A program made the position numbers and the translations under genes. The notes beneath the pieces were generated by a model. It saw only the letters and a list, made by a program, of their open reading frames with translations, ran no database searches and was not told the DNA's origin. This document shows positions 6,702 through 37,252 of a DNA stretch of 54,265 nucleotides, piece after piece. The number at the start of each line of letters is the position of its first letter. Position 1 is the stretch's first letter. This DNA is from Chloroflexota bacterium (GTDB taxonomy: Bacteria; Chloroflexota; UBA6077; JACCZL01), in NCBI GenBank assembly GCA_046154735.1, contig JBJXFJ010000108.1, forward strand, positions 1-54,265, in the 5' to 3' direction.

Positions 6702-8639
6702 CTATGGGATTGGCGCCTGGGTCTGGCGGGCAGGGGCAGCTTGCGATGCAGCGCCAGTGCCACTACCGGAATCCGCTTGCGGTAGCTTGAAATACTGGCG
6801 CAGAATCCTCATCGCAATCGGCGCCGCGTTCTTACTCCCCGTTCCCTTCTCCACAAACACGGTGACGGCGACCTCAGGATCCTCAACTGGGGCGAATCCC
6901 GTGAACCAGCCATGAGTAGGAAGAGCGCCGCTGGCATCGCGCGGCCCGGTGTACTCGCCTGTACCAGTCTTACCGGCAATCCTTAGCTCGGGAATGCGTA
7001 GATCCTTGAGCAGAACACCGGAAAAGCCAGCCTCCATGCCTTCCAGTATGACTGAACGCAGTTGCGGCGGAATATCCACATCACGAATGATCTGTGGCGG
7101 AACGGTACGAACTTGCTGTCGATCCGTGTCCGCGATCTCCTTCACCAATCGCGGACGAACCAGCTTTCCGCCATTCGCGAGGGCATTGGTAAAATTTGCC
7201 ACTTGAAGCGGCGTGGAGAGAACGTAACCCTGTCCAATGGACATGTTGTACGTATCGCCTTTCACCCAGCGTTCACCCCGACGCTGGAGCTTCCAAGCCT
7301 CATCCGGAACAACCCCGGCGGCTTCATTCGGCAGATCGATCCCCGTGGGCGCCCCATAGCCATAGAGGCGAGCATATGCGGCGAGACGCTCATTTCCGAG
7401 ACCCTGGAAGCGCTCTGTCTCGTAGCCACCACCAAGGTAAAAGAAGTACACGTTAGAGGAATTGGCCAGGGCCGAAACCATATTTAACCGGCCAAGAACG
7501 GACCAATCCGGAAAGATCTGCCGATAGTTCGGATCGTACTCACTGGGAACAAATATGGCCCCCTTGCTCTCGATGATCGTATTCCGGTTGGCAACACCAT
7601 CTTTCAGCGCCGCGGCGGCCGTGACCAGCTTGAACGTTGAGCCAGGTGGATAGAGGCCCGAGGCCGCACGATGAAAGAATGGCTGAGCCGGGTCCTTGAA
7701 GAGGAGCTCTAGCTCGGCCTCGCGGCTGTCATCTGCAAAGATGTTGTTGTCATAGGTTGGCAAGCTCACCATGGCGAGCAGGTCGCCGGTCTTAGGGTTC
7801 ATAACTATGGCAACACCGGTGGTCTCCCCATTCAAACCTTCCTGGAGAATGCGCGCGGTATCCCGCTGGAGATCCAGATCGAGACTCAAGATCAGATTTC
7901 GGCCAGGGTCCGGATTCTCTACACGAATCTCGTTGACCGGCCGACCGCTGGCTTCCACCTCGTACATTCGGCGACCGGGCTGCCCGCGCATGACCGACTC
8001 GTACTGTTCCTCAAGTCCGGCCGCTCCGATGCGATCGTTAATCGTGTAGCCCTCGCGATCGATTTTTGACCGATACTCAGCGGGGGAGAGCAGCGTCGGC
8101 GAAATCAGGCCCGTGTACCCGAGCAGGTGCGCCAACAAGGGGCCCTCACTGTACTTCCGCGTAGATTCCACGCTGATCACAACACCAGGAAGCTCCTCAT
8201 GGCGTTCTTCGATCCGTAATGCCGCGGTCCGTTCCACGTTGTACTTCACCGGAATCGGTGTAAAGAGATCGTCATCAGACCGGCGGCGCTCGATGACGCG
8301 CCGGAGGTCAAGGGTCGACATGCCCAACAGGGTCGCAAGTCGATCATAGATCTCGGCCTCGCGGCGCGCCGGGATGTCCGCCGGGACGATGGATGCCACG
8401 AAAATTGGCGCATTTGATGCCAGCAACTGGCCACGACGGTCATACATGACACCGCGTGGCGGCTTAATAGCACTAATGCGGACGCGATTGTTATCAGCCT
8501 TCTGGCGAAAGGAAGGGCCTTCAACAATTTGAAGCCGCCAGAGTTGCGCGCCCAGCACAAGGAAGGCGAGAACCACGACCGCCCGAAAGAGATTTGCCGG
8601 GAGGCTCGGCGCGCCCGTTCGCTCAGATACATCAAGCAT
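6702..8639 (-). CDS. mrdA: penicillin-binding protein 2 (peptidoglycan D,D-transpeptidase)
   Basis: N-terminal anchor LFRAVVVLAFLVLGAQLW and a PBP dimerisation region. Transpeptidase motifs STFK (PGSTFKLVTA), SSN (NSSNVYF) and KTGT (AGKTGTGE). Confidence 0.9.
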   Translation of the reverse strand: MLDVSERTGAPSLPANLFRAVVVLAFLVLGAQLWRLQIVEGPSFRQKADNNRVRISAIKPPRGVMYDRRGQLLASNAPIFVASIVPADIPARREAEIYDRLATLLGMSTLDLRRVIERRRSDDDLFTPIPVKYNVERTAALRIEERHEELPGVVISVESTRKYSEGPLLAHLLGYTGLISPTLLSPAEYRSKIDREGYTINDRIGAAGLEEQYESVMRGQPGRRMYEVEASGRPVNEIRVENPDPGRNLILSLDLDLQRDTARILQEGLNGETTGVAIVMNPKTGDLLAMVSLPTYDNNIFADDSREAELELLFKDPAQPFFHRAASGLYPPGSTFKLVTAAAALKDGVANRNTIIESKGAIFVPSEYDPNYRQIFPDWSVLGRLNMVSALANSSNVYFFYLGGGYETERFQGLGNERLAAYARLYGYGAPTGIDLPNEAAGVVPDEAWKLQRRGERWVKGDTYNMSIGQGYVLSTPLQVANFTNALANGGKLVRPRLVKEIADTDRQQVRTVPPQIIRDVDIPPQLRSVILEGMEAGFSGVLLKDLRIPELRIAGKTGTGEYTGPRDASGALPTHGWFTGFAPVEDPEVAVTVFVEKGTGSKNAAPIAMRILRQYFKLPQADSGSGTGAASQAAPARQTQAPIP

Positions 8640-27634: not shown

Positions 27635-28662
27635 GCTTCGTCCACCTCAGCCTCTCCGAAGAGCTGACGGCGTAACGATTCAAACGTCCAGGCCTTGTGC
27701 TCGAATACGTAGCGCAAGGGAATGGCCGTCACATCTGCCGCGCCGGCCTTTCGCAGGGCATCCACCGCCTTCTGAAGCAGGCTGTCATCCACCACTATGG
27801 TAGTGGCGAACCAGCCACTCTGACCGCCCACCTTGGAGTACACCGGAGCCACTGTGGGTCCCTGCAGCCCGGCCACTTCGCCGTGGCTCGTGACCATTTG
27901 GGCAATTGTCTCAGGACTATCGCCATGTATGTTCGCGGTGAGCGAGTAATAGCTCCGTGCCCGCAAATGAGCTTCAATGAGCTCCAAAATCTGGCGCGTA
28001 ACCTGTAATTTAGCGTCCGAATCACGAAGGGCAACGCGATTCGCAATCAAGCAGGCCTGCGAATCGAGAATCGTTCCACCATTCACTGATTTCAGGCGAT
28101 TTTCACGGAGGGTCACGCCGCTGGATGTGAGATCACAGATCATATCGGCGTAGCCCATGGCAGGCGCCGCTTCCATCGCGCCGCTGCTCTCGACGATCGA
28201 GAAATAGTTGATACCTCGGTCGAAGAGAAACTGACGGGTGAGATTGACATACTTGGTGGCAATTCGCAGCTCGCGCCCGCGCGAGCGCAGGTCGGCAGAA
28301 ATCTCCGCCAGATCGGCAATACCGCTTACGTCAATCCAGCCTTCCGGCACCGCCAGCACAAGTGAACAGTGGCCAAAGCCCAGTTTGGGATGCAACATGA
28401 TGACATTGTCGTCTTCCCGCTCATGTTCACGAACGATGTCATAGCCGGTAATACCGATGTCCACGCTGCCCTCGCTGACCTTTTCCACGATGTCAGGCGC
28501 GCGCTGGAACAGCACCTCCACGCCACGCAGCGAGCGGACCGTGGCACGATATTGCCGGGGGTTGCTCCGATTCACACCCAGTCCACATGATGAAAGAAAC
28601 GCGAGCGCGGCATCTTCCATGCCCTTGGAGGGAACGGCTAACCGTAGGCGTGCTTCGCTCAT
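27631..28662 (-). CDS. hisG: ATP phosphoribosyltransferase, long form with C-terminal regulatory domain
   Basis: LRLAVPSKG and DLTSSGVTLRENRL motifs, plus a HisG_C-like tail (YYSLTANIHG...TAIPLRYVFE). Length is 343 aa. Confidence 0.85.
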   Translation of the reverse strand: MSEARLRLAVPSKGMEDAALAFLSSCGLGVNRSNPRQYRATVRSLRGVEVLFQRAPDIVEKVSEGSVDIGITGYDIVREHEREDDNVIMLHPKLGFGHCSLVLAVPEGWIDVSGIADLAEISADLRSRGRELRIATKYVNLTRQFLFDRGINYFSIVESSGAMEAAPAMGYADMICDLTSSGVTLRENRLKSVNGGTILDSQACLIANRVALRDSDAKLQVTRQILELIEAHLRARSYYSLTANIHGDSPETIAQMVTSHGEVAGLQGPTVAPVYSKVGGQSGWFATTIVVDDSLLQKAVDALRKAGAADVTAIPLRYVFEHKAWTFESLRRQLFGEAEVDEA

Positions 28663-30194
28663 GAGACCAGTACCTGAGACGAGACAAGCGCCTGAAAGAG
28701 CTCGGCTGTCGGCACGAGCCGCTCCTCTCGCTTTTCCATGTCTCGGAGCAGCACGGAGGATTCTTCCCGCTCGCGCGCACCAATCAACACTACGTGCCGC
28801 AGTCCGGCTCTGTCCGCATGGCGCAGATTGCCTCTGACACCACGATAGCGCAGGTCAAGGTCAACGCTGAGCCCCTGTTCACGCAAGAGCTGCGCAACCC
28901 TGATGGCTTCCATCGTATCGGCTTGTTCCACCGGTGCCACGAGCAGAGGGACAACCCGCACGTTGGCTTCCCTCCCATGCTCCTGCTCTAGCGCCAGATC
29001 AACCCGCTCCAGCCCGAATGAGAACCCGCACGCTGGAATCTGGGAGCGGCCGCCGAGTGCGCGGATCAAGCCATCATAGCGTCCTCCACCACAGAGCTGA
29101 ACTGGCCCCTCTGGGCCATCGTGGTACATCTCAAAGACCATTCCGGTGTAATACCTGAGGCCGCGTGCCAGACTGAGGTCCACGACGATGTTGTGGCCGC
29201 TATAGCCATATGCATCGAAGACCTCAAGGGCCTTCTGGATTTCTTCGAGCGGAGCCGGATCCAGACCGTGCTCGTTGAAGATTTCTCGGGTGGTGGGCAG
29301 TGCTGATTCCAGAGGTCCCGCCGCCCGGTGAAGCGCGAGAACGCACTCCATGGCTCGATCCACCTGCCCAATGAGTTTTCTGCGCTCACCTTTTCGTAGC
29401 AGGCGTTGGACAATCTCCTCTGGGGTTCGGGTGCTGCCTTCCAGCCCGAAGCTCGCGCGCTCGAGGAGATCGATGGTCATGCGAGTAGCGTCACCGGGGC
29501 CTAGCTCTTCCAATAGGGTGGTTGGGGCAACACCCTGGTCATCCAATGGTGAAACGGCCGGTGCTCCCAGTAGATCCAGCATCCGCTCACGGATCGCCGT
29601 ATGATCGGTGGAGCGATGGATGAGCATTTCCATATGCCCCAGGATCACGGACTGAGCATGTTCCTCAAGTCCAAGTTGGGCGAGCGACTCGAGGACAGCG
29701 CCAAGGTGGCCCACAACGATTCGGTGTCCCGTAAGTCCGGTACGCTCAAGCGCTCCACAGGCGATTGCCAGAGTCTCCGCATCAGCCTCGGGAGCCGGGC
29801 CACCAACGCACTCAAGGCCCACTTCAGTGTACTGACGATACCGTCCACGCTGTGGCTTTTCATACCGGAAAGCGGGTCCGGCGTAGGATAGACGCACCGG
29901 CAGCGGTTGATCCTGCAGGTGGTTCACGTAGGCACGCATGACCGAGGCCGTGAACTCCGGCCGCAAGCACAGTCGACGATTCCAGTGCGTGAACGTGTAC
30001 ATTCGCGCGGCGATCTCTTCACCGGATTTACGGAGAAAGAGGTCAAGATTCTCGAGCACCGGAGTGACGATTAGCCGATAGCCGTAGCGTTCAAAGTGCT
30101 CCAGGAGCTGAACCTGGAGTGAGTCAAGCCGAGCGGCGCGATCCGGCAGTAAATCAAGCGTGCCGCGCACGCGCTGGATTTCAGAAATCTCCAT
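28659..30194 (-). CDS. histidyl-tRNA synthetase-like protein (HisS or HisZ-type paralogue) with anticodon-binding-like C-terminus
   Basis: MEISEIQRVRGTLDLLPD N-terminus, motif 2 FRYEKPQRGRYRQYTEVGLE, LARGLRYYTG, and motif 3 GGGRYDGL. The C-terminal alpha/beta domain is VRVVPLLVAP...HVVLIGARE. 4-nt overlap with hisG. Start ATG 30194 is chosen over the GTG at 30362, but the SD is weak. Confidence 0.75.
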   Translation of the reverse strand: MEISEIQRVRGTLDLLPDRAARLDSLQVQLLEHFERYGYRLIVTPVLENLDLFLRKSGEEIAARMYTFTHWNRRLCLRPEFTASVMRAYVNHLQDQPLPVRLSYAGPAFRYEKPQRGRYRQYTEVGLECVGGPAPEADAETLAIACGALERTGLTGHRIVVGHLGAVLESLAQLGLEEHAQSVILGHMEMLIHRSTDHTAIRERMLDLLGAPAVSPLDDQGVAPTTLLEELGPGDATRMTIDLLERASFGLEGSTRTPEEIVQRLLRKGERRKLIGQVDRAMECVLALHRAAGPLESALPTTREIFNEHGLDPAPLEEIQKALEVFDAYGYSGHNIVVDLSLARGLRYYTGMVFEMYHDGPEGPVQLCGGGRYDGLIRALGGRSQIPACGFSFGLERVDLALEQEHGREANVRVVPLLVAPVEQADTMEAIRVAQLLREQGLSVDLDLRYRGVRGNLRHADRAGLRHVVLIGAREREESSVLLRDMEKREERLVPTAELFQALVSSQVLVS

Positions 30195-30564
30195 CCGTAA
30201 TGTGGCCACCCTCTCCCGGTGAAAACGCTTTCGGATTCTAACACGGGCTGAATCGGTAGGTTGAAACACTGAATCACGATACCCAGAACGCAGCGACTGA
30301 GAATCCCGTCGGAATAGCTGAGCGCCCAATCTCTTCTTCCCTGAATCAGTGTCTGCTTCCACGCCATTCCTTGAAGGCGATCGGGTCTGTCACTGAGCTT
30401 GAGTCATTAGGCTGAATGCGGCACACTCAAGTCGTGAGAATCGAGGAGTCATCGCCACTCGTCTACCTGCTCATCCTGACCCTGGCCCTGGGGCTCATCG
30501 GAACAGTACTTATCATGTTCTGGTCCCAGCTCAGCAGCCTCATGCGAGGTCTTGGGGCGGCCTA

Positions 30565-31260
30565 GTGCAGGTGTTGCGGCACGTCTGGGCAACGGGCCTT
30601 GCCTCACTCTTTCCCTCGCGCTGCGTGGGCTGCGGACGGCGGGATACAGATCTTTGCGATGCCTGTCGATCGAACCTTCTGCGCTTACCCGACCGACGCT
30701 GTCCACACTGCGCGGCGCCCGCGGGGCGGCTCGGCGTGTGTGATCGATGCCGCACCCATCGAGTCTATCTCGACAGCATTCGAGTGGATCTCGCCTTTGA
30801 CGGCCCACTGCGTAAGGCGATTCATCTCTTGAAATATCGGCATGGGACGTATTTGATCCCAATGCTCAGAGACTTAGCCCTTGAGTCCATACGCGCCCGG
30901 CCGCTCCGACCAGATGCAATTGTTCCCGTCCCAATTGGACCACGCCGCTTGCGGGAACGCGGCTACAATCAATCCATACTCCTCGCGGAAGCGATCGGTA
31001 GCGCCCTCAACCTCCCTGTCATGGTAGCCCTGGACCGAGTGAAGGAAGGCCCCTCCCAAACTCGACTAAACGTCAGTGAACGGCGAGCAAATGTGCGCGA
31101 CGCATTTGCCGTACGGCGAGATCTTGATCCGGACGGGCTTCGCCTGCTGCTTATCGATGATGTCATGACCACGGGCGCTACGCTTGACGCGTGCGCTCGA
31201 GCGCTCAAGCGAGCCGGCGCGGCTCGGGTATTTGGCCTGGCGGTGGCACGTGAGGTCTAG
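30565..31260 (+). CDS. ComF-family phosphoribosyltransferase-like protein
   Basis: Cys-rich N-terminus (CVGCG..CDAC..CPHC..CDRC) and PRTase motif LLLIDDVMTTGAT. Confidence 0.8.
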   Translation: MQVLRHVWATGLASLFPSRCVGCGRRDTDLCDACRSNLLRLPDRRCPHCAAPAGRLGVCDRCRTHRVYLDSIRVDLAFDGPLRKAIHLLKYRHGTYLIPMLRDLALESIRARPLRPDAIVPVPIGPRRLRERGYNQSILLAEAIGSALNLPVMVALDRVKEGPSQTRLNVSERRANVRDAFAVRRDLDPDGLRLLLIDDVMTTGATLDACARALKRAGAARVFGLAVAREV

Positions 31261-31335: not shown

Positions 31336-31995
31336 ATGACCAACCTGCAATTCTCCGTACTGATTGTTGACAACGATAACGAGCGGCGAGCCCATATTCG
31401 CAATCTCATCGATGCCACCGACGAGCTCCGGTGCATCGGAGATGCATCTCACGGACGTCAAGCCGCCGCGCTCGCTCAGCAGCTCAATCCGGATGTCGTC
31501 GTCATCACGCTACTTCCCTCGCTCGAGGACAACACTCACGCCCGAGGATTGATCCGCCACGCCGCCGAGAGCGCTTCAGTCCTGCTGATCGGCGATTCGA
31601 GTGATCTCGCCCTCGCAAGTCTATCTGTTACAGGGGAGCCTCTCAGGAGAATTGACGCATACGCCGTTGACACGCACCTGATTCTCAGCTTACGAGCGCT
31701 CGTCTTGCATTCACCACGATCCTCGCAGCACATCAGTCGGCGGGTGCTGACCCGAGTAGTCCAGGCTCAGTCCTCCACCCCATTGCCCCACCTCACTCCG
31801 CGACAACTTGCAGTACTTCGGCAGGCCGCACGCGGGCTCACAAACCGCGATATCGGGTCACTGCTCAACATTTCGCAAGCAACCGTGGACAAACACCTGG
31901 CGGATAGTTATGTCAAATTAAGCGTGTCATCACGCGATGAAGCCATCAAGTGTGCCAGGCAACTCGGGTGGCTGGATGACGAGCCCGCGGGCTGA
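31336..31995 (+). CDS. LuxR-family transcriptional regulator with degenerate (pseudo-)receiver domain
   Basis: C-terminal HTH LTPRQLAVLRQAARGLTNRDIGSLLNISQATVDKHLADSYVKL. The N-terminal receiver-like fold has the acceptor position replaced (PDVVVITLLPS instead of ...D..MP). Confidence 0.75.
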   Translation: MTNLQFSVLIVDNDNERRAHIRNLIDATDELRCIGDASHGRQAAALAQQLNPDVVVITLLPSLEDNTHARGLIRHAAESASVLLIGDSSDLALASLSVTGEPLRRIDAYAVDTHLILSLRALVLHSPRSSQHISRRVLTRVVQAQSSTPLPHLTPRQLAVLRQAARGLTNRDIGSLLNISQATVDKHLADSYVKLSVSSRDEAIKCARQLGWLDDEPAG

Positions 31996-32013: not shown

Positions 32014-32979
32014 TCACAGGGGTGAACCGTTAGCCAACCCTTGTTGCAAGCGGGCGGTACGCCGAGCATGCCCCTCCTCCTGAAGCGTAAACCAGAGATA
32101 GAAGGCAAAATAGCTACGCCAACCTGTCCAGGCCTCGGCAATTGCGCGGACTTCATGTTCCGTCGCTAAACGTCCCATGCCATACTGCTGGCCTATGATC
32201 CGGCGTAGTCCGCCATCACCAGCCGGGATGACATCAGGCTGCCCCACGCCGCGCATGAGCACGTATTCAGCCGTCCAACGACCGACGCCCTTGAGCTGCT
32301 GGAGTCGTTCGAGGGCAGTCTCCGCCGGCATCGCGTAGAGCGCATTTAGATCAAGGCGACCCTCCACTACCTCGTGAGCAAGATTCAAAATGTAGCGCGA
32401 CTTCTGGCGGCTGAACTGGATTTCCGCCAACTCTGGTTCCGTGATCTCTAGCACCCGCTCCGGCGAGGGAAAGAGCATCCAGGATTCTCCATCGAGCGTG
32501 AAGCTATCACCAAAGCGCTCCACGAAGGCGCGCTTACACTTACCTGCAAAGCTCACATTGATTTGCTGTCCAATGATCGCCCAGACGATGGTCTCGAAGA
32601 GATCTGGGAACAGCACTGGCCTCAGGCCGCGAAATCGTGTGAGTAGGCCGCTCCCGAACTCATCCTTCCGCGCAATGGAATCCAGCAGCGGCCGAACATC
32701 CGTGCGAGCTCCGAACATGCGCTCCACAATGGGTCGGACGAGATTTTCCGGGTTGTTCGGCAGTTGCGTGCTCTGCAATGACACCAGGAGCGTATCGGCA
32801 CCATCAGCCGGCTGTGAAACGCTGAGGAGGGATGGTTGCCCATCGATCACGAGGGGTCGGTGATACGAGCGCTCGCCCAATCGCTCAACGATGGTCGCAG
32901 GCGAGCCACGCAGGTAGGCCAGCGGAAGATCGAAGCTGAATGGTGCGATCACTGAGATCAAACACTGGAACGTTTCCAT
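32014..32979 (-). CDS. alkA: DNA-3-methyladenine glycosylase II (AlkA-like, HhH-GPD)
   Basis: FETIVWAIIGQQINVSFA, helix-hairpin-helix LKGVGRWTAEYVLMRG and IPAGDGGL. Start set at ATG 32979, 1 nt after the TGA (32981-32983) of the upstream gene. Confidence 0.8.
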   Translation of the reverse strand: METFQCLISVIAPFSFDLPLAYLRGSPATIVERLGERSYHRPLVIDGQPSLLSVSQPADGADTLLVSLQSTQLPNNPENLVRPIVERMFGARTDVRPLLDSIARKDEFGSGLLTRFRGLRPVLFPDLFETIVWAIIGQQINVSFAGKCKRAFVERFGDSFTLDGESWMLFPSPERVLEITEPELAEIQFSRQKSRYILNLAHEVVEGRLDLNALYAMPAETALERLQQLKGVGRWTAEYVLMRGVGQPDVIPAGDGGLRRIIGQQYGMGRLATEHEVRAIAEAWTGWRSYFAFYLWFTLQEEGHARRTARLQQGLANGSPL

Positions 32980-32980
32980 G

Positions 32981-33715
32981 TCAGGCAGGACAGCAGAGCT
33001 TGCACGGGCGATAGCCAGACTCAATTGCTTGAGACGGAGAGGAGAATGTAACCGCGTTGTGCGGCTTCACCCGTCGTCCCGCGTAGCAGAATGGCAGACA
33101 GAAGATTCGAGTGGTGGTGCAGCCATTGAATCGCTTTCCCTGCCGCGCCCGCCGAGCAAGAGCGTCCACGTCAACACCCTCCAGCAACAGGATTGCTCGC
33201 TTCTTGGATGGACCACCAGCCCCGTAGTTCACCAGCGTGTAGTCCGTACGCACGGCCCGGTGACAGGGTACCAGCACCGGTATCGGATTGCTGGCCATGG
33301 CATCACCGACCGCGCGCGCGGCCAACGGCGCGCCGATGGCCCGTGCGATCCAGGAGTACGACCGAATCTCCCCTCGTCGTACGGTCATGACCTCACGCAA
33401 CGCGCGCTCCTGCAGAGGCGTCACGGATGAGAGATCCACGGTCCCCCGAAACCTCCCCCGTCTGTCCAACACGTCTCTCACGGCGCGGCCGAGCACTGCC
33501 GGCACTTCGCTGGAAGGTACCGGCCGCTCACCAATGCGCTCATAGCACTTCTGTTCAAAGTCTTCCGCACTCAAATCCAGATCACTGAAGCGCGCTGTCC
33601 GACCAGAGAAAGCGAGGCTGAGACGCCCGTAGTCCGAATCAAAGGCCGCGTATTCAAGCGGCTGCGCCGGTCCAGAGTCCGATGTGGCTCGCTGATTTAT
33701 CGAAACCGTAATCAA
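32981..33715 (-). CDS. methylated-DNA--protein-cysteine methyltransferase fused to a C-terminal Ada-type Cys4 zinc module
   Basis: MGMT DNA-binding/active-site domain (TPLQERALREVMTVRRGEIRSYSWIA...NPIPVLVPCHRAV). It is followed by TTRIFCLPFC...GYRPCKLCCP, the Ada N-terminal zinc-domain pattern. Confidence 0.75.
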   Translation of the reverse strand: MITVSINQRATSDSGPAQPLEYAAFDSDYGRLSLAFSGRTARFSDLDLSAEDFEQKCYERIGERPVPSSEVPAVLGRAVRDVLDRRGRFRGTVDLSSVTPLQERALREVMTVRRGEIRSYSWIARAIGAPLAARAVGDAMASNPIPVLVPCHRAVRTDYTLVNYGAGGPSKKRAILLLEGVDVDALARRARQGKRFNGCTTTRIFCLPFCYAGRRVKPHNAVTFSSPSQAIESGYRPCKLCCPA

Positions 33716-33784
33716 CCTCCATATGCCAGTTCCGTCCTTGCCGGAACGCTCATCGCTAGTTCGGTAATGAGAGCTGCACGCTGC

Positions 33785-34684
33785 TTAAGCCGCACTAGCC
33801 AGCGGCCGACAGTGTTTGCACGGCCGATATCCCGCGGCACTCGCAGCTCGCTCGTCGGAGAACATCACCTGGTGGATCAGTTGAATTCGGCGTGCGTCCC
33901 GGCAGGTGGGATAACAGTAAATTCGGGTCGTATCGGAGCCCAGGTAACGCACTTTGCGCCGCGCCAGCTCGTCAATTGCCTCAGTGGAAACACCCTCACG
34001 CTCGAGCAAGGTCCGTTTGATCCCACTTCCGTAGGCATAGTTACCAATACCGCCCGTGGAAGGCACGACCCGATGGCAGGGCAAGAGCAAGGGTACAGGG
34101 TTCCGATTCATGATGTTTCCCACGGCACGCACCGCGCGCGGGCTACCGGCTTCGGTTGCGAGCCACGCATACGGTCGCAGTTCACCTCGTGGAATCGTGC
34201 GCATCTTCTCAAGCACGACCCGTTCAAAAGTTGGCAACCCATCGAGATCGACTGGAACATCGCTCGACCACCGCCCCTCGGCTGCATCAACCACCGCTTG
34301 AGCAATTTGGGATGGTATCTCCCCAATGACCGCGTCTCGACCAAGCCGGCGGCGGTACGCCAGTTGAACTGTCTCGGCGTCTCCGGGATCGAGGGACACA
34401 AAGGTCACACCGCGTGCATTGAAGCCCACCCAGACCTGGCCGAGCGCCGTTGAGATCCGGCCAAGCTGATCACTCATGGCTGCGCTGATGCGACCAAGAA
34501 GGGATGGCGGCGCCGAAACCGCGAGTGCATGCAGCGCGGAGGTCACTTCTTTGAGACGCAGCAACGCGAGCGTGCATGCCTCGCAGCCATCGAGATGTGC
34601 ACGGACTTCGGCCTGGATTTTGGAGTCCAGTTCCGCCGTCCGATACGCGTCCAGCAGTCTCGCGGTTTGTTCACAACTCAGCAT
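33785..34684 (-). CDS. zinc-binding anti-sigma (ZAS, HxxxCxxC) domain fused to MGMT domain and Ada-type Cys4 zinc module
   Basis: ATG 34684 with GGAGG 6 nt upstream, overlapping the sigma-factor stop by 14 nt. The N-terminus is MLSCEQTARLLDAYRTAELD...AHLDGCEAC (H-x3-C-x2-C). The centre is TFERVVLEKMRTIPRGELRPYAWLA...NPVPLLLPCHRVV. The C-terminus is TTRIYCYPTC...GYRPCKHCRP. No TM helix is present. Confidence 0.7.
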   Translation of the reverse strand: MLSCEQTARLLDAYRTAELDSKIQAEVRAHLDGCEACTLALLRLKEVTSALHALAVSAPPSLLGRISAAMSDQLGRISTALGQVWVGFNARGVTFVSLDPGDAETVQLAYRRRLGRDAVIGEIPSQIAQAVVDAAEGRWSSDVPVDLDGLPTFERVVLEKMRTIPRGELRPYAWLATEAGSPRAVRAVGNIMNRNPVPLLLPCHRVVPSTGGIGNYAYGSGIKRTLLEREGVSTEAIDELARRKVRYLGSDTTRIYCYPTCRDARRIQLIHQVMFSDERAASAAGYRPCKHCRPLASAA

Positions 34685-35243
34685 GGGAGTCCTCCAAGAA
34701 TTCTTCACGTAGGCGGGCCAGACTTCGAAATACTTTCCCCCTCGCCGCCGATTCCGTTCCACCCCTGATGACGGCAATCTCGGCATAAGTCAGATCGCTG
34801 ATAAATCGCAGGGTCAACCACTCCCGCGTGATCTCATCCACTCTCCCAAATGCAGTTCGCATTCGATCGAGCTCACCGTCAACTACGGTTCGCTCCGGAT
34901 CGCTGAGATCGGCAACTTCCGGGACGTTCTCAAACGGTACGATCAGTAGCCGACTTTTTCGAGCACGAATACGGTTAAGTGCCAGATTTCGGGCGATCTT
35001 CAGTAGCCACGACCGAACGGCCAGGTCAACAACCTGCACTTCACTGTATTGCGTGCGCAGCGCGCGAATTGCGCGGACGAATGTGTCCTGTGCTACCTCC
35101 TCTGCATCCCGGGGATCGGACACTACCGCGAGGGCGTACGCATACACTCTGTTCTGGTGTGTCGTGACGAGCTCAGAAATGGCCGTGTCATCTCCATTTC
35201 GCACGCCAAGCAGGATTCTGACTGCCTTCGTCTCAGTAATCAC
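34671..35243 (-). CDS. ECF (group IV) sigma-70 family RNA polymerase sigma factor
   Basis: Region 2 (HQNRVYAYALAVVSDPRDAEEVAQDTFVRAIRAL) and region 4 (LTLRFISDLTYAEIAVIRGGTESAARGKVFRSLARLRE). Start set at GTG 35243 (GGAGG 4 nt upstream). The ORF-track ATG 35327 is the alternative. Confidence 0.8.
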   Translation of the reverse strand: MITETKAVRILLGVRNGDDTAISELVTTHQNRVYAYALAVVSDPRDAEEVAQDTFVRAIRALRTQYSEVQVVDLAVRSWLLKIARNLALNRIRARKSRLLIVPFENVPEVADLSDPERTVVDGELDRMRTAFGRVDEITREWLTLRFISDLTYAEIAVIRGGTESAARGKVFRSLARLREEFLEDSHAEL

Positions 35244-35306
35244 CTGTCCTCCCTGCGCGTGGTTTGCTACGCTCAATAAACACCAGAATGGCGCTCCGCG
35301 TTCGCG

Positions 35307-35924
35307 GTGACGTTCAGATTCATTCACCGGGATTTCACTGTGACCGATCAGACTTCAGACACGCCAATACTCAACATTACCGGGAGCCTCGCGGCGCTTG
35401 GTCCGATGCACCGCGAGCTGCTGCCCCTATATTCACGGTGGATGAACGATTTTGAGGTGACACGAACACTGGCCGTTGGATGGTTGGCGATGACCATGGA
35501 GCGAGAGGTGGAGTGGTATGAGCACGCTTCACGAGCCTCGAACCAGGTTACGTTCACGATCTACGCGTTACCCGAACTACGCCCGATAGGAAACGCCGGA
35601 TTGACCGAGATCGATGATCGGCATGGGACAGCGGAATTTGGAATCTTGATCGGGGAAAAGGACTATTGGGGTAGGGGCATTGGCACCGAAGTCACGCGGC
35701 TCGTCCTGGACTACGCGTTTCATGGTCTGGGACTGAACAATGTCATGCTGCGGGTATACGCGACCAACGAAGCCGGTATTCGCGCCTATTCACGGGCTGG
35801 ATTCAGGACCATCGGCCGCCGGCGGGAGTCTCGCCGTTGGGGAGCCGCGCGGGTCGACACAATACTTATGGACTGTCTCGCGACTGAATTTCAGGAGTCC
35901 GTCCTCGCAGGCCGTTTCCTGTAA
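35307..35924 (+). CDS. GNAT-family N-acetyltransferase (RimJ/RimL-like)
   Basis: LYSRWMNDFEV..., TEIDDRHGTAEFGILIGEKDYWGRGIGTEVTRLVLDYAF (acetyl-CoA motif), and NEAGIRAYSRAGF. The start is either GTG 35307 or GTG 35340. Confidence 0.8.
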   Translation: MTFRFIHRDFTVTDQTSDTPILNITGSLAALGPMHRELLPLYSRWMNDFEVTRTLAVGWLAMTMEREVEWYEHASRASNQVTFTIYALPELRPIGNAGLTEIDDRHGTAEFGILIGEKDYWGRGIGTEVTRLVLDYAFHGLGLNNVMLRVYATNEAGIRAYSRAGFRTIGRRRESRRWGAARVDTILMDCLATEFQESVLAGRFL

Positions 35925-35944: not shown

Positions 35945-37252
35945 TTACCGTGAACGCTGACTGGCTTCATACCCCTGAGCGACCACCGCCATATCCGGCA
36001 ATCGAGGAAGCGCCCGTAGAGCTAGTTCCAGTTCACAGCGCGTACCCGGGCGAGAGCCTGGGTTCGGGCGGTAGCAGGAGCCCGACGACCCATCGTCATT
36101 TTGGTGTGAAGTGAGCCCCCGGAAGAGATCGTGTCGAACTGACGACACATGCGGACTCTCTGCCGACCAGACGCCAATCGCCGAGACGCTTGGATAGCTC
36201 AGTACTCGGCGGATCTGGCGAAGCTCCACATCGAGGCGCGCCCAGGGCTCATCAGCGCGGTAGACACCCGGTAGCTCCCGGGATGTGCCCAGCTCCTCCA
36301 CAATGACCGGCAACGCCCGCCCGTTCTCGCAGGTCATTCTGGTTGTGTGCTGGAGGTCCCACTGGATCGGTACGTCTCCGCCGCCAGTATCGTCCCACCA
36401 GTCAAACGTATGCAGGGTATAGGCGTGGATTGGCGCCTCGCAAAAGAGGTGGCGTGCAATGGGGGAATCGGAATTTCCAGGGTCCAGGATCCCTCCACCC
36501 ATAGTGCCCGGCAGAATCGGCGTGACACCGTCAATTCTGCGAATCTCAATGGTCACGTCATCGATAAAGCGAAGAATCATGCTCGGGTTTTCCTGGGTGT
36601 GAATCTCATTTCCAAGCTCCCACGCCCAGATAACGTCAAGAGCGCCGTGCTGTTTCACGGTTAAAATGATTTCACTCAGAAATTCTCGATAGCTGCCGCG
36701 CCAGGTGGAGGAATAAAAAGGAAGCATGAGCTGTCGGTATCCGTGCATCCAACCCAGTGGCGCGGATGTATCACCGGGAACCTCGCGGTACTGGTCCATG
36801 AGAGCGACAATGAGCTTGAGACGGTGCTGACGCAGTAGTGGTGCCATCTCAACAATTCGCTCACCGATCTCCCTACCAGTCAGATTCAGGTGACCAATTT
36901 TGTCCGTTGAGAACACACGCACCACTCCTGCGTTCAACCAGGCCGCGTACTCCAAATTCTCTCGCACATCGGCCGGCCTCTCGTGAAAGAGCAGCGCGTG
37001 CATATTGAGAATGAGTGACTGGCCGTTGGCGAAGTTGCGCGGAGCGAGATTAGGATTTTGCCCCGGGGATCGCGTCGCCACGTGGACATCGATGCCTGAC
37101 GCGCGAACGGCTTCGGCGCTTGCCGGTGCAGGAGGCGGAGCACCCGTTGACGCCATCACGATGATGACCGCGGAGAGCAGTAGAACGGGAAGCCGATACG
37201 CCGCTCGGCCTAGATTGTGCAGAACTTGGATGGACTCTTCTGAGGATCTCAC
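35945..37252 (-). CDS. secreted/anchored glycoside hydrolase family 5-like protein
   Basis: N-terminal signal-anchor LPVLLLSAVIIVMASTGA. WAWELGNE is a candidate acid/base Glu and VIVEELG a candidate nucleophile Glu, in a TIM-barrel-length protein. Confidence 0.65.
   Translation of the reverse strand: MRSSEESIQVLHNLGRAAYRLPVLLLSAVIIVMASTGAPPPAPASAEAVRASGIDVHVATRSPGQNPNLAPRNFANGQSLILNMHALLFHERPADVRENLEYAAWLNAGVVRVFSTDKIGHLNLTGREIGERIVEMAPLLRQHRLKLIVALMDQYREVPGDTSAPLGWMHGYRQLMLPFYSSTWRGSYREFLSEIILTVKQHGALDVIWAWELGNEIHTQENPSMILRFIDDVTIEIRRIDGVTPILPGTMGGGILDPGNSDSPIARHLFCEAPIHAYTLHTFDWWDDTGGGDVPIQWDLQHTTRMTCENGRALPVIVEELGTSRELPGVYRADEPWARLDVELRQIRRVLSYPSVSAIGVWSAESPHVSSVRHDLFRGLTSHQNDDGSSGSCYRPNPGSRPGTRCELELALRALPRLPDMAVVAQGYEASQRSR

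Follow-up and report, generated by a model that had tools for sequence, protein, structure and literature searches.

Can the repair of alkylated DNA signal to RNA polymerase through a sigma factor and its inhibitor? This question is raised by a minus-strand locus in a contig of 54,265 nucleotides (nt) from a Chloroflexota bacterium (GenBank assembly GCA_046154735.1, contig JBJXFJ010000108.1; the whole contig is hereafter the window). A gene for a sigma factor of the extracytoplasmic function (ECF) type is followed there by a gene whose product joins an anti-sigma domain to an O6-alkylguanine-DNA alkyltransferase (MGMT) and an Ada-type zinc module. A first-pass annotation made from the sequence alone had proposed that methyl transfer from damaged DNA onto any of three cysteine centres of the second protein releases the sigma factor and induces the operon. 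According to the analysis reported here, the two proteins very probably form a cognate pair that governs alkylation-repair genes. We lean towards a fuller reading, in which the pair is autoregulated and controls an alkylation-repair operon, with the anti-sigma factor itself acting as a suicide methyl acceptor. That methyl transfer would also be the inducing signal seems somewhat more probable than the opposite. The two genes, and the modules predicted in the product of the second in amino acids (aa), are as follows.

34671..35243, minus strand: ECF sigma factor gene; 190 aa, start GTG 35243, with Sigma70_r2 and Sigma70_r4_2
33785..34684, minus strand: anti-sigma::MGMT::Ada-Zn fusion gene; 299 aa, three Pfam matches, all exceeding the curated cut-offs
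34472..34684, minus strand: predicted class I anti-sigma domain; aa 1-71, helices 4-15, 21-33, 35-53 and 60-70
33959..34471, minus strand: two-lobe O6-alkylguanine-DNA alkyltransferase; aa 72-242, active-site Cys203 (codon 34078-34076)
33803..33946, minus strand: Ada-type Zn(Cys)4 methyl-acceptor module; aa 247-294, C257 (codon 33916-33914), C261, C289 and C292

The gene boundaries given before were verified in the sequence. The sigma factor gene ends with TGA at 34673-34671 (minus strand), the fusion gene starts with ATG at 34684-34682 (minus strand), GGAGG (34695-34691) lies 6 nt upstream of this start, and the two genes overlap by 14 nt. The longest open reading frame (ORF) of the fusion begins at ATG 34786; the start at 34684 is backed by homologues and by the ribosome-binding site. 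The sigma factor matched Sigma70_r2 (1e-13) and Sigma70_r4_2 (5e-7) and no further Pfam domain, and scored 63 bits against TIGR02937 sigma70-ECF (cut-off 42.9); it thus has regions 2 and 4 only, as ECF sigma factors do. The solved structures nearest to it were AlgU, SigE, SigW and CnrH. One boundary was revised. The right edge at 35327 is the GTG of the longest ORF, and the most likely start of the sigma gene is instead GTG 35243, which has GGGAGG 4 nt on its 5' side, since a conserved ECF promoter (35279-35304) falls downstream of 35327.

Judged by sequence and model, the N-terminal domain of the fusion protein is a genuine class I anti-sigma domain. The zinc anti-sigma motif zf-HC2 was found at aa 4-37 with 25.5 bits (Pfam cut-off 22.2), while NCBIfam anti-sigma and RsrA-type models matched aa 1-73 under their cut-offs. 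When a profile of the N-terminus was compared with the PDB, the best match was RsiW (3.6e-7), which spanned all four helices, followed by DdvA (2e-4), RslA (6e-4) and ChrR (7e-3); the match to RsrA was weak (E 0.78). The AlphaFold2 model of the isolated domain (N-terminal 78 residues) had a pLDDT of 91. In a Foldseek search with this model, the top 11 hits were all anti-sigma chains (RsiW, RslA, MucA, RskA, DdvA), mostly from sigma/anti-sigma complexes, with probabilities up to 0.98, TM 0.60/0.67 and weak E-values of ~0.16, as expected for a helical domain of ~70 residues. C4, H30, C34 and C37, which are predicted zinc ligands, make up the full zinc-binding anti-sigma (ZAS) set including H-x3-C-x2-C, and were invariant or more than 90% conserved in alignments A1 and A2. 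L11, D12, R15, T16 and E18 were conserved as well. Thus, a four-helix domain of ~70 aa with a zinc motif was found in a gene that adjoins its ECF sigma gene, and the ZAS signature claimed for this N-terminus was borne out.

The full-length AlphaFold2 model (pLDDT 93, pTM 0.76; input alignment of 117 homologues) was all-soluble and comprised three modules. No transmembrane segment follows the anti-sigma domain, in agreement with the earlier reading. Helix 4 enters the first strand of the MGMT N-lobe directly, without a linker.

The two remaining modules are genuine as well. MGMT DNA_binding_1 (PF01035) was matched at aa 153-232 (5e-27), and Foldseek of this part retrieved E. coli Ada-C 1sfe (E 1.4e-11, TMt 0.78) as well as human AGT, M. 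tuberculosis OGT and SsOGT from Sulfolobus (E ~1e-10 to 1e-11). The fold was thus that of a two-lobe alkyltransferase, with an N-terminal alpha/beta lobe and a helix-turn-helix C-lobe. The catalytic set Y172, R186, N195, P202-C203-H204-R205 and E230 was invariant in alignment A1 (20 sequences), and the motif PCHRVV was present. Ada_Zn_binding (PF02805) was matched at aa 247-294 (9e-11, profile positions 18-64 of 65). The module superimposed on the methylated N-Ada/DNA structure 1u8b over 51 columns with 37% identity and a root-mean-square deviation of 1.8 A. It contains the motifs TTRIYCYPTC...GYRPCKHCRP, and its four cysteines (C257, C261, C289, C292), invariant in A1, follow the pattern C-x3-C ... 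C-x2-C and match C38, C42, C69 and C72 of Ada. The catalytic residues of MGMT and the Ada Cys4 are intact in the window protein, and both modules are putative methyl acceptors. All domains that the first-pass annotation had expected (Sigma70_r2/r4, zf-HC2, MGMT and Ada_Zn_binding) were recovered.

In order to find relatives, several searches were made; L and P numbers denote the loci and proteins from them. More than 120 relatives of full length (~295 aa, 45-68% identity) came from a protein search, and the only functional names among them were MGMT or methylated-DNA-cysteine methyltransferase. When one genome was scanned for each GTDB species, 288 relatives were obtained, and 80 loci were fetched for comparison using two peptide patterns, one with PCH and the other with the Ada motif. 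A homologue of the window sigma factor was encoded directly upstream on the same strand in all 80 loci, which represent many phyla; judged by sequence, the partner is translationally coupled to it in each case. On this sequence evidence, the combination of the three-domain architecture with an adjacent sigma gene is not due to chance, because it recurs across many phyla. The recurrence anticipated for a search across phyla was therefore found. The system is present in about eight lineages of phylum rank; in most of them, the sigma and partner genes alone make up the operon.

The loci fell into two classes. Class A has 48 members including the window and a complete anti-sigma domain; it was found in Chloroflexia, Acidobacteriota/Thermoanaerobaculia, Gemmatimonadota, Latescibacterota and Zixibacteria. 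The overlap between sigma stop and partner start was 11 nt in 44 of these 48 loci. Class B comprises 32 loci (L046-L049, L051-L066, L068-L072 and L074-L080; e.g., L046 5983-6756), mostly from Actinomycetota, Chloroflexota and Dormibacterota. Its partner genes begin at an ATGA that they share with the sigma stop codon (an overlap of 4 nt in 23 of 32 loci), and their products retain a remnant of the anti-sigma domain: the C-terminal half of helix 3 and helix 4, with a conserved 'AP..ll..V' motif, helices 1-3 being otherwise gone. A profile-profile comparison placed the class B N-terminus on columns 41-78 of the domain from class A (probability 95.9%, E 6e-9). The two classes were cleanly apart in a neighbour-joining tree of the sigma factors, in step with the class of the partner.

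Some gene neighbourhoods contained a further gene. In Thermoanaerobaculia loci, a stand-alone PP2C/SpoIIE phosphatase (SpoIIE 2e-41) is encoded just downstream of the pair (L039 7076-7774; L041 6849-7571), and similar phosphatase genes were seen in L028, L032, L033 and L043.

A natural fusion tied the partner to the sigma factor more directly. HMMER, run exhaustively against 1.84 billion cluster representatives, gave 125 clusters at E <= 1e-30. Among the proteins found, P0261 from Streptomyces sp. WM6378 (L083 4001-5395) is one chain of 464 aa with sigma region 4, MGMT and Ada-Zn. Its residues 41-176 aligned to the entire unfused sigma factor of Streptomyces sp. SH5 (43% identity, E 2e-35). 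The same fusion was present in S. violascens (L086 3001-4509; 502 aa, 88% identity to the WM6378 protein over the full length), and each of the two fusion genes is followed by an Ogt gene. Since two independent assemblies carry the fusion, a sequencing artefact is unlikely. By its sequence, the single-chain protein is a Rosetta-stone fusion of the sigma factor with its partner, which is evidence for a direct functional link between the two.

The pair also appears to have its own promoter, as had been expected for the region 35244-35340.

35279..35304, minus strand: predicted ECF-type promoter; -35 CGAAC (35304-35300), 16-nt spacer, -10 GTGTT (35283-35279)

This motif lies ~35 nt upstream of the sigma start GTG 35243. 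CGAAC(G)-N16-GTGTT was found at the same position upstream of the sigma gene in 42 of the 48 class A loci, from several phyla, and TGCAAC-N16-G(G/T)GTT in 25 of the 32 class B loci; in Kitasatospora the motif is ~10 nt ahead of the sigma ATG. Autoregulation of the operon by the sigma factor via this predicted promoter is inferred from its position and conservation. In the window, the motif GAAC-N15-18-GTGTT occurred four times against 1.2 expected, which is marginally above chance, as 4 of 100 shuffles reached this count. The match at 35279-35304 was the only one outside a long ORF; those at 8181, 36912 and 44405 were rejected as targets, being inside long ORFs and off the consensus spacing.

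The suggestion that other repair genes share the promoter found no support in the window and was supported in relatives. In class B, the motif was also present 5' of a stand-alone Ogt gene downstream of the pair (L053 6755-6781), ahead of a divergent Ogt gene in L060 (about 1046-1049, both strands) and ahead of a divergent gene for an alkyltransferase-like (ATL-like) PWHRV protein in L061 (4009-3983 on the minus strand, 4033 on the plus strand). It also precedes an EamA permease gene in L065 (5180-5183, both strands), and some of these extra motifs stand back to back. An Ogt gene is directly next to the pair in the Streptomyces and Kitasatospora loci. The output of the regulon is therefore likely to be alkylation repair, promoter use being read from the motifs.

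In the window, the sigma and fusion genes head a compact minus-strand operon of four genes, as read from the sequence. The two further genes, whose presence downstream on the same strand was confirmed by Pfam and NCBIfam matches, are as follows.

32981..33715, minus strand: second MGMT::Ada-Zn gene; 244 aa, PF01035 5e-24, PF02805 2.6e-10, start codon uncertain
32014..33024, minus strand: AlkA-like HhH-GPD DNA glycosylase, last gene of the operon; PF00730 8e-18, NCBIfam AlkA PRK10308 7e-29, below cut-off

The second MGMT::Ada-Zn protein shares 36-38% identity with the fusion protein across the MGMT and Ada part. It has none of the anti-sigma helices, even the helix 4 remnant being missing, and its gene is not adjacent to a sigma gene. 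A gap of 69 nt (33716-33784) separates it from the fusion gene, in which no ECF motif was seen on reading; a sequence scan of the operon revealed no sigma-70-type promoter and no convincing terminator inside it. The nearest locus, L001 from a Chloroflexia metagenome-assembled genome (67% identity), has the same four-gene operon including the second MGMT::Ada-Zn gene, and an AlkA-like gene after the pair was found in the Chloroflexota loci L001, L048 and L054. The sole in-frame start of the second MGMT gene is TTG 33715, which GGAGG abuts directly. The alkA ORF, taken from TTG 33024, overlaps the end of that gene by 44 nt (32981-33024); its start is uncertain, too.

Which cysteine centre would sense methylation? 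The proposal that any of the three could do so was narrowed by comparison within the family. Among the 48 proteins of class A, 13 (L012, L015-L017, L019-L022, L025, L027, L029, L030 and L073, a Gemmatimonadota/Latescibacterota subclade) have lost between one and four ZAS zinc ligands, for example, with C4 changed to R/S/I, H30 to Q or C37 to L/S/I, and have retained the helices, PCHR and the Ada Cys4. In class B, the ZAS motif is entirely missing. The ZAS cysteines were thus rejected as the conserved sensor on comparative grounds. The catalytic cysteine of MGMT is dispensable in some members as well: in the Kitasatospora-type class B proteins P0277, P0278, P0279, P0223 and P0237, which come from the unbiased HMMER search, it is replaced by Thr (PTHR or PTYR), with the Ada Cys4 intact. 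P0277 and P0279 were checked and have an adjacent sigma gene and a separate intact Ogt gene nearby (Kitasatospora loci L087 3501-4301 and L088 3501-4352). This pattern fits a sensor rather than a repair enzyme, as far as sequence can tell. The Ada Cys4 was kept in all 80 complete members of the locus set and in every further complete member examined, although invariance of PCHR and Ada across the 80 loci is partly circular, as the search patterns contained PCH and the Ada motif. Since ZAS ligands and the MGMT cysteine get lost in the family and the Ada Cys4 is kept, the comparison suggests the Ada-type Zn(Cys)4 as the best candidate for a common sensor.

Precedents exist for both acceptors. 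Methylation of E. coli Ada Cys38 is an electrostatic switch (PMC10779285), and alkylated O6-alkylguanine-DNA alkyltransferases are destabilized via the interface between the N- and C-lobes and then degraded (PMC4605297). By analogy, a second route through MGMT alkylation is plausible for those members whose MGMT is active, the window protein among them; in the AlphaFold2 model, anti-sigma helix 4 is welded to the MGMT N-lobe.

We infer a mechanism in which the sigma factor is bound, a methyl group acts as the trigger and release follows. The four-helix domain would keep the sigma factor off core RNA polymerase at rest. Upon encountering methylated DNA, the protein would irreversibly transfer a methyl group onto itself. 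The acceptor would most likely be the Ada-type Zn(Cys)4 at Cys257 and the donor a methylphosphotriester, the same signal as for E. coli Ada; MGMT Cys203 may contribute. The modified protein would stop restraining the sigma factor, either through an electrostatic or conformational switch or through destabilization and degradation as in alkylated alkyltransferases. Free sigma factor would then transcribe from CGAAC-N16-GTGTT, giving more sigma factor and more repair proteins, and fresh unmethylated anti-sigma factor would end the response. Sequence comparison indicates graded forms of the partner, namely a full zinc anti-sigma domain, a zinc-less domain, a helix-4-only remnant, a dead-MGMT sensor and a single-chain sigma fusion. 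There is an even chance, in our judgement, that these represent a third wiring of the bacterial adaptive response. A suicide methyl acceptor (Ada-type Zn(Cys)4, with or without an active MGMT) would reside inside the partner of a dedicated ECF sigma factor, and each repaired lesion would stoichiometrically free or activate one sigma; this would also explain the 'orphan' group ECF122 discussed below.

Several points weigh against methyl-triggered sigma release, besides the partial circularity of the motif counts. The second paralogue (32981-33715) has the same Ada-Zn module and no anti-sigma element, so this module need not be regulatory. Class B retains half of helix 3 and helix 4; if the mechanism is shared, either the interface is very reduced or simple sequestration does not apply. 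In the single-chain Streptomyces fusions, physical release of the sigma factor is impossible. For the class B remnant and the covalent fusion, the switch may be intramolecular or conformational, or the partner may act as an activator in the manner of Ada.

The last point leads to an alternative in which the methylated protein stays with the sigma factor or the holoenzyme and stimulates transcription as an Ada-like co-activator, for instance via a raised DNA affinity of the zinc module. The two Streptomyces proteins and the class B members without a complete anti-sigma domain would be accommodated, and the DNA affinity of N-Ada indeed rises on methylation (PMC10779285). However, the class I anti-sigma domain is complete in the window protein and 47 relatives, no function other than sigma inhibition is known for this fold, and no sequence-specific helix-turn-helix is present besides that of MGMT; such co-activation is improbable. 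An RsrA-like thiol/zinc switch, in which electrophiles oxidize or alkylate the zinc cysteines of the anti-sigma domain and thereby release the sigma factor, with MGMT and Ada as passengers, appears rather unlikely. The window protein does have the complete C4/H30/C34/C37 set and a weak NCBIfam match to the RsrA model, and its C-to-H spacing of 26 is that of C11 and H37 in RsrA. Zinc motifs are, moreover, enriched in soluble class I anti-sigma domains (PMC7406223). Yet, the zinc is structural in RsiW, the closest solved relative (PMC7406223), the 13 members described above have lost ligands despite bearing the anti-sigma domain, and class B keeps sigma adjacency and promoter without helices 1-3.

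It is unlikely, too, that the domain merely buffers the sigma factor, with the repair level self-limited by plain negative feedback and any input coming from elsewhere, such as general proteolysis or outside transcription. Such feedback would agree with the observations that sigma and partner genes mostly form a self-contained operon under a promoter of their own, that there is no sign of another sensor and that anti-sigma turnover controls many ECF pairs. It leaves unexplained why the partner constantly contains an Ada-type Zn(Cys)4, a signalling centre in E. coli (PMC10779285), and why Kitasatospora keeps a dead MGMT with an intact Ada centre beside the sigma gene while encoding a separate Ogt. 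That sigma factor and repair protein share an operon without any regulatory link, the N-terminal helices being vestigial, is hardly credible. The database annotation is just 'MGMT family protein', as this view would predict, but it is opposed by a sigma gene next to the partner gene in 80 of 80 loci from different phyla, by the conserved overlap of the two genes, by conservation of the anti-sigma residues L11, D12, R15, T16 and E18, and by the natural gene fusion with the sigma factor.

Methyl transfer as the inducing signal, which we prefer, invites comparison with E. coli Ada. The window fusion has both suicide methyl-acceptor modules of Ada, with the Cys4 aligning residue for residue (1u8b, 1sfe), and both systems would be self-induced with repair genes including alkA as output. 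The order of modules differs: Ada is arranged Zn-HTH-MGMT, while in the fusion protein the anti-sigma domain is followed by MGMT and then Ada-Zn. Its Ada module lacks Pfam positions 1-17, and the protein gave no HTH_18 or HTH_AraC match in Pfam, whereas the genuine Ada proteins P0264 and P0269 from the HMMER search do show these domains. Ada acts via the Ada box and sigma-70, and the window system would act via a class I anti-sigma domain and via an ECF sigma factor dedicated to it, which has a promoter type of its own. By sequence, the window system falls outside the family of Ada regulators, because it has no AraC helix-turn-helix and a reversed domain order. Plausibly, and by analogy, the sensing step resembles Ada and the output step a class I sigma/anti-sigma pair. 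In B. subtilis AdaA/AdaB and in Aspergillus, methylphosphotriester sensing and O6-alkylguanine repair are separable, which parallels the Kitasatospora dead-MGMT sensor with its Ogt; those systems still use an AraC-type DNA-binding activator (PMC10779285), unlike the window system.

Among sigma/anti-sigma pairs, SigW-RsiW, SigL-RslA and RpoE-ChrR share with the window pair the four-helix N-terminal domain, H-x3-C-x2-C and co-transcription with the sigma gene, and they matched best in both sequence and fold. Proteolysis controls RsiW and RslA, which are membrane proteins, and ChrR has a cupin sensor, whereas the window protein is soluble with two DNA-repair methyl acceptors as the sensor part. 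SigR-RsrA is similar in that its zinc anti-sigma factor is soluble and spaces the ligands identically, and in that cysteine modification is the signal, the latter being proposed here for the window protein. It differs in that the zinc ligands are dispensable in the window family, the cysteine proposed to be modified is in another domain and the methyl donor would be damaged DNA. The Streptomyces single-chain proteins resemble ECF41/ECF42 with their fused C-terminal regulatory extensions (PMC8999054) in layout; the extension is, however, a DNA-repair methyl acceptor in Streptomyces, and the window genes are separate.

The first-pass annotation was not aware of any such system, a view that has to be divided. 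A catalogue entry for the sigma-MGMT neighbourhood already exists, namely group ECF122 (Casas-Pastor et al. 2021, cited in the 2022 review PMC8999054), which is described as having no cognate anti-sigma factor, a 6-O-methylguanine DNA methyltransferase neighbour and an unknown mechanism, with an example from Cellulomonas. The loci described here are alike in combining an ECF sigma factor with a conserved MGMT neighbour, and the published ECF122 example is actinobacterial, like class B loci. In contrast to the absence of an anti-sigma factor reported for ECF122, the zinc anti-sigma domain is complete in the window partner, and its helix 4 persists in class B. The class B partners are probably the ECF122 partners reported as being without an anti-sigma factor. 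Neither MGMT nor ECF122 is mentioned in the main text of Casas-Pastor 2021 (journal and bioRxiv versions). Literature searches that paired anti-sigma or ECF with alkyltransferase, Ada, alkylation or methyl methanesulfonate (MMS) found no characterized example; a 2023 review of the alkyltransferase family (PMC10779285) does not mention sigma factors, and a review of ECF stress responses does not mention alkylation. The anti-sigma domain on an MGMT protein, the class B remnant, the conserved promoter, the fused and dead-MGMT variants and the reading as an alkylation switch appear to be undescribed.

The adaptive response is the textbook case of a repair reaction serving as a signal, so far only with AraC-type Ada/AdaA activators. 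If the proposal holds, the same chemistry would be coupled to a completely different transcription device, which consists of an ECF sigma factor and a class I anti-sigma domain, and ECF sigma factors would acquire a new sensory input in the form of DNA alkylation detected within the cell. A group currently reported without an anti-sigma factor and without a mechanism would gain a mechanism, and the pair would be a natural stoichiometric lesion counter, which might be reused as an orthogonal biosensor of alkylation. The plain database name MGMT hides the proposed regulatory role. Members occur in cultured Streptomyces, Kitasatospora and Nonomuraea, and the system is thus directly testable.

Regarding the surroundings of the operon, GC content was flat over 26-42 kb, with no sign of a recently acquired island. 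Upstream and divergent from the sigma gene lies a GNAT acetyltransferase gene (35307-35924, plus strand). Its longest ORF starts at GTG 35307 and abuts the sigma promoter; the Pfam domain starts at residue 33, and the true start may be an ATG near 35406. Just past it, an ORF of 435 aa (35945-37252, minus strand) had no Pfam match at E <= 0.001. At the other end, a LuxR/GerE-type regulator gene (31336-31995, plus strand) is convergent with alkA; its receiver domain scored 21 bits against a Pfam cut-off of 30, and the protein may thus be an atypical response regulator or a degenerate one. Two further genes seem unrelated: one for a ComF-like double-zinc-ribbon phosphoribosyltransferase (30565-31260, plus strand) and a histidyl-tRNA-synthetase-family ORF of 567 aa (28659-30362, minus strand) with an N-terminal extension of ~65 aa.

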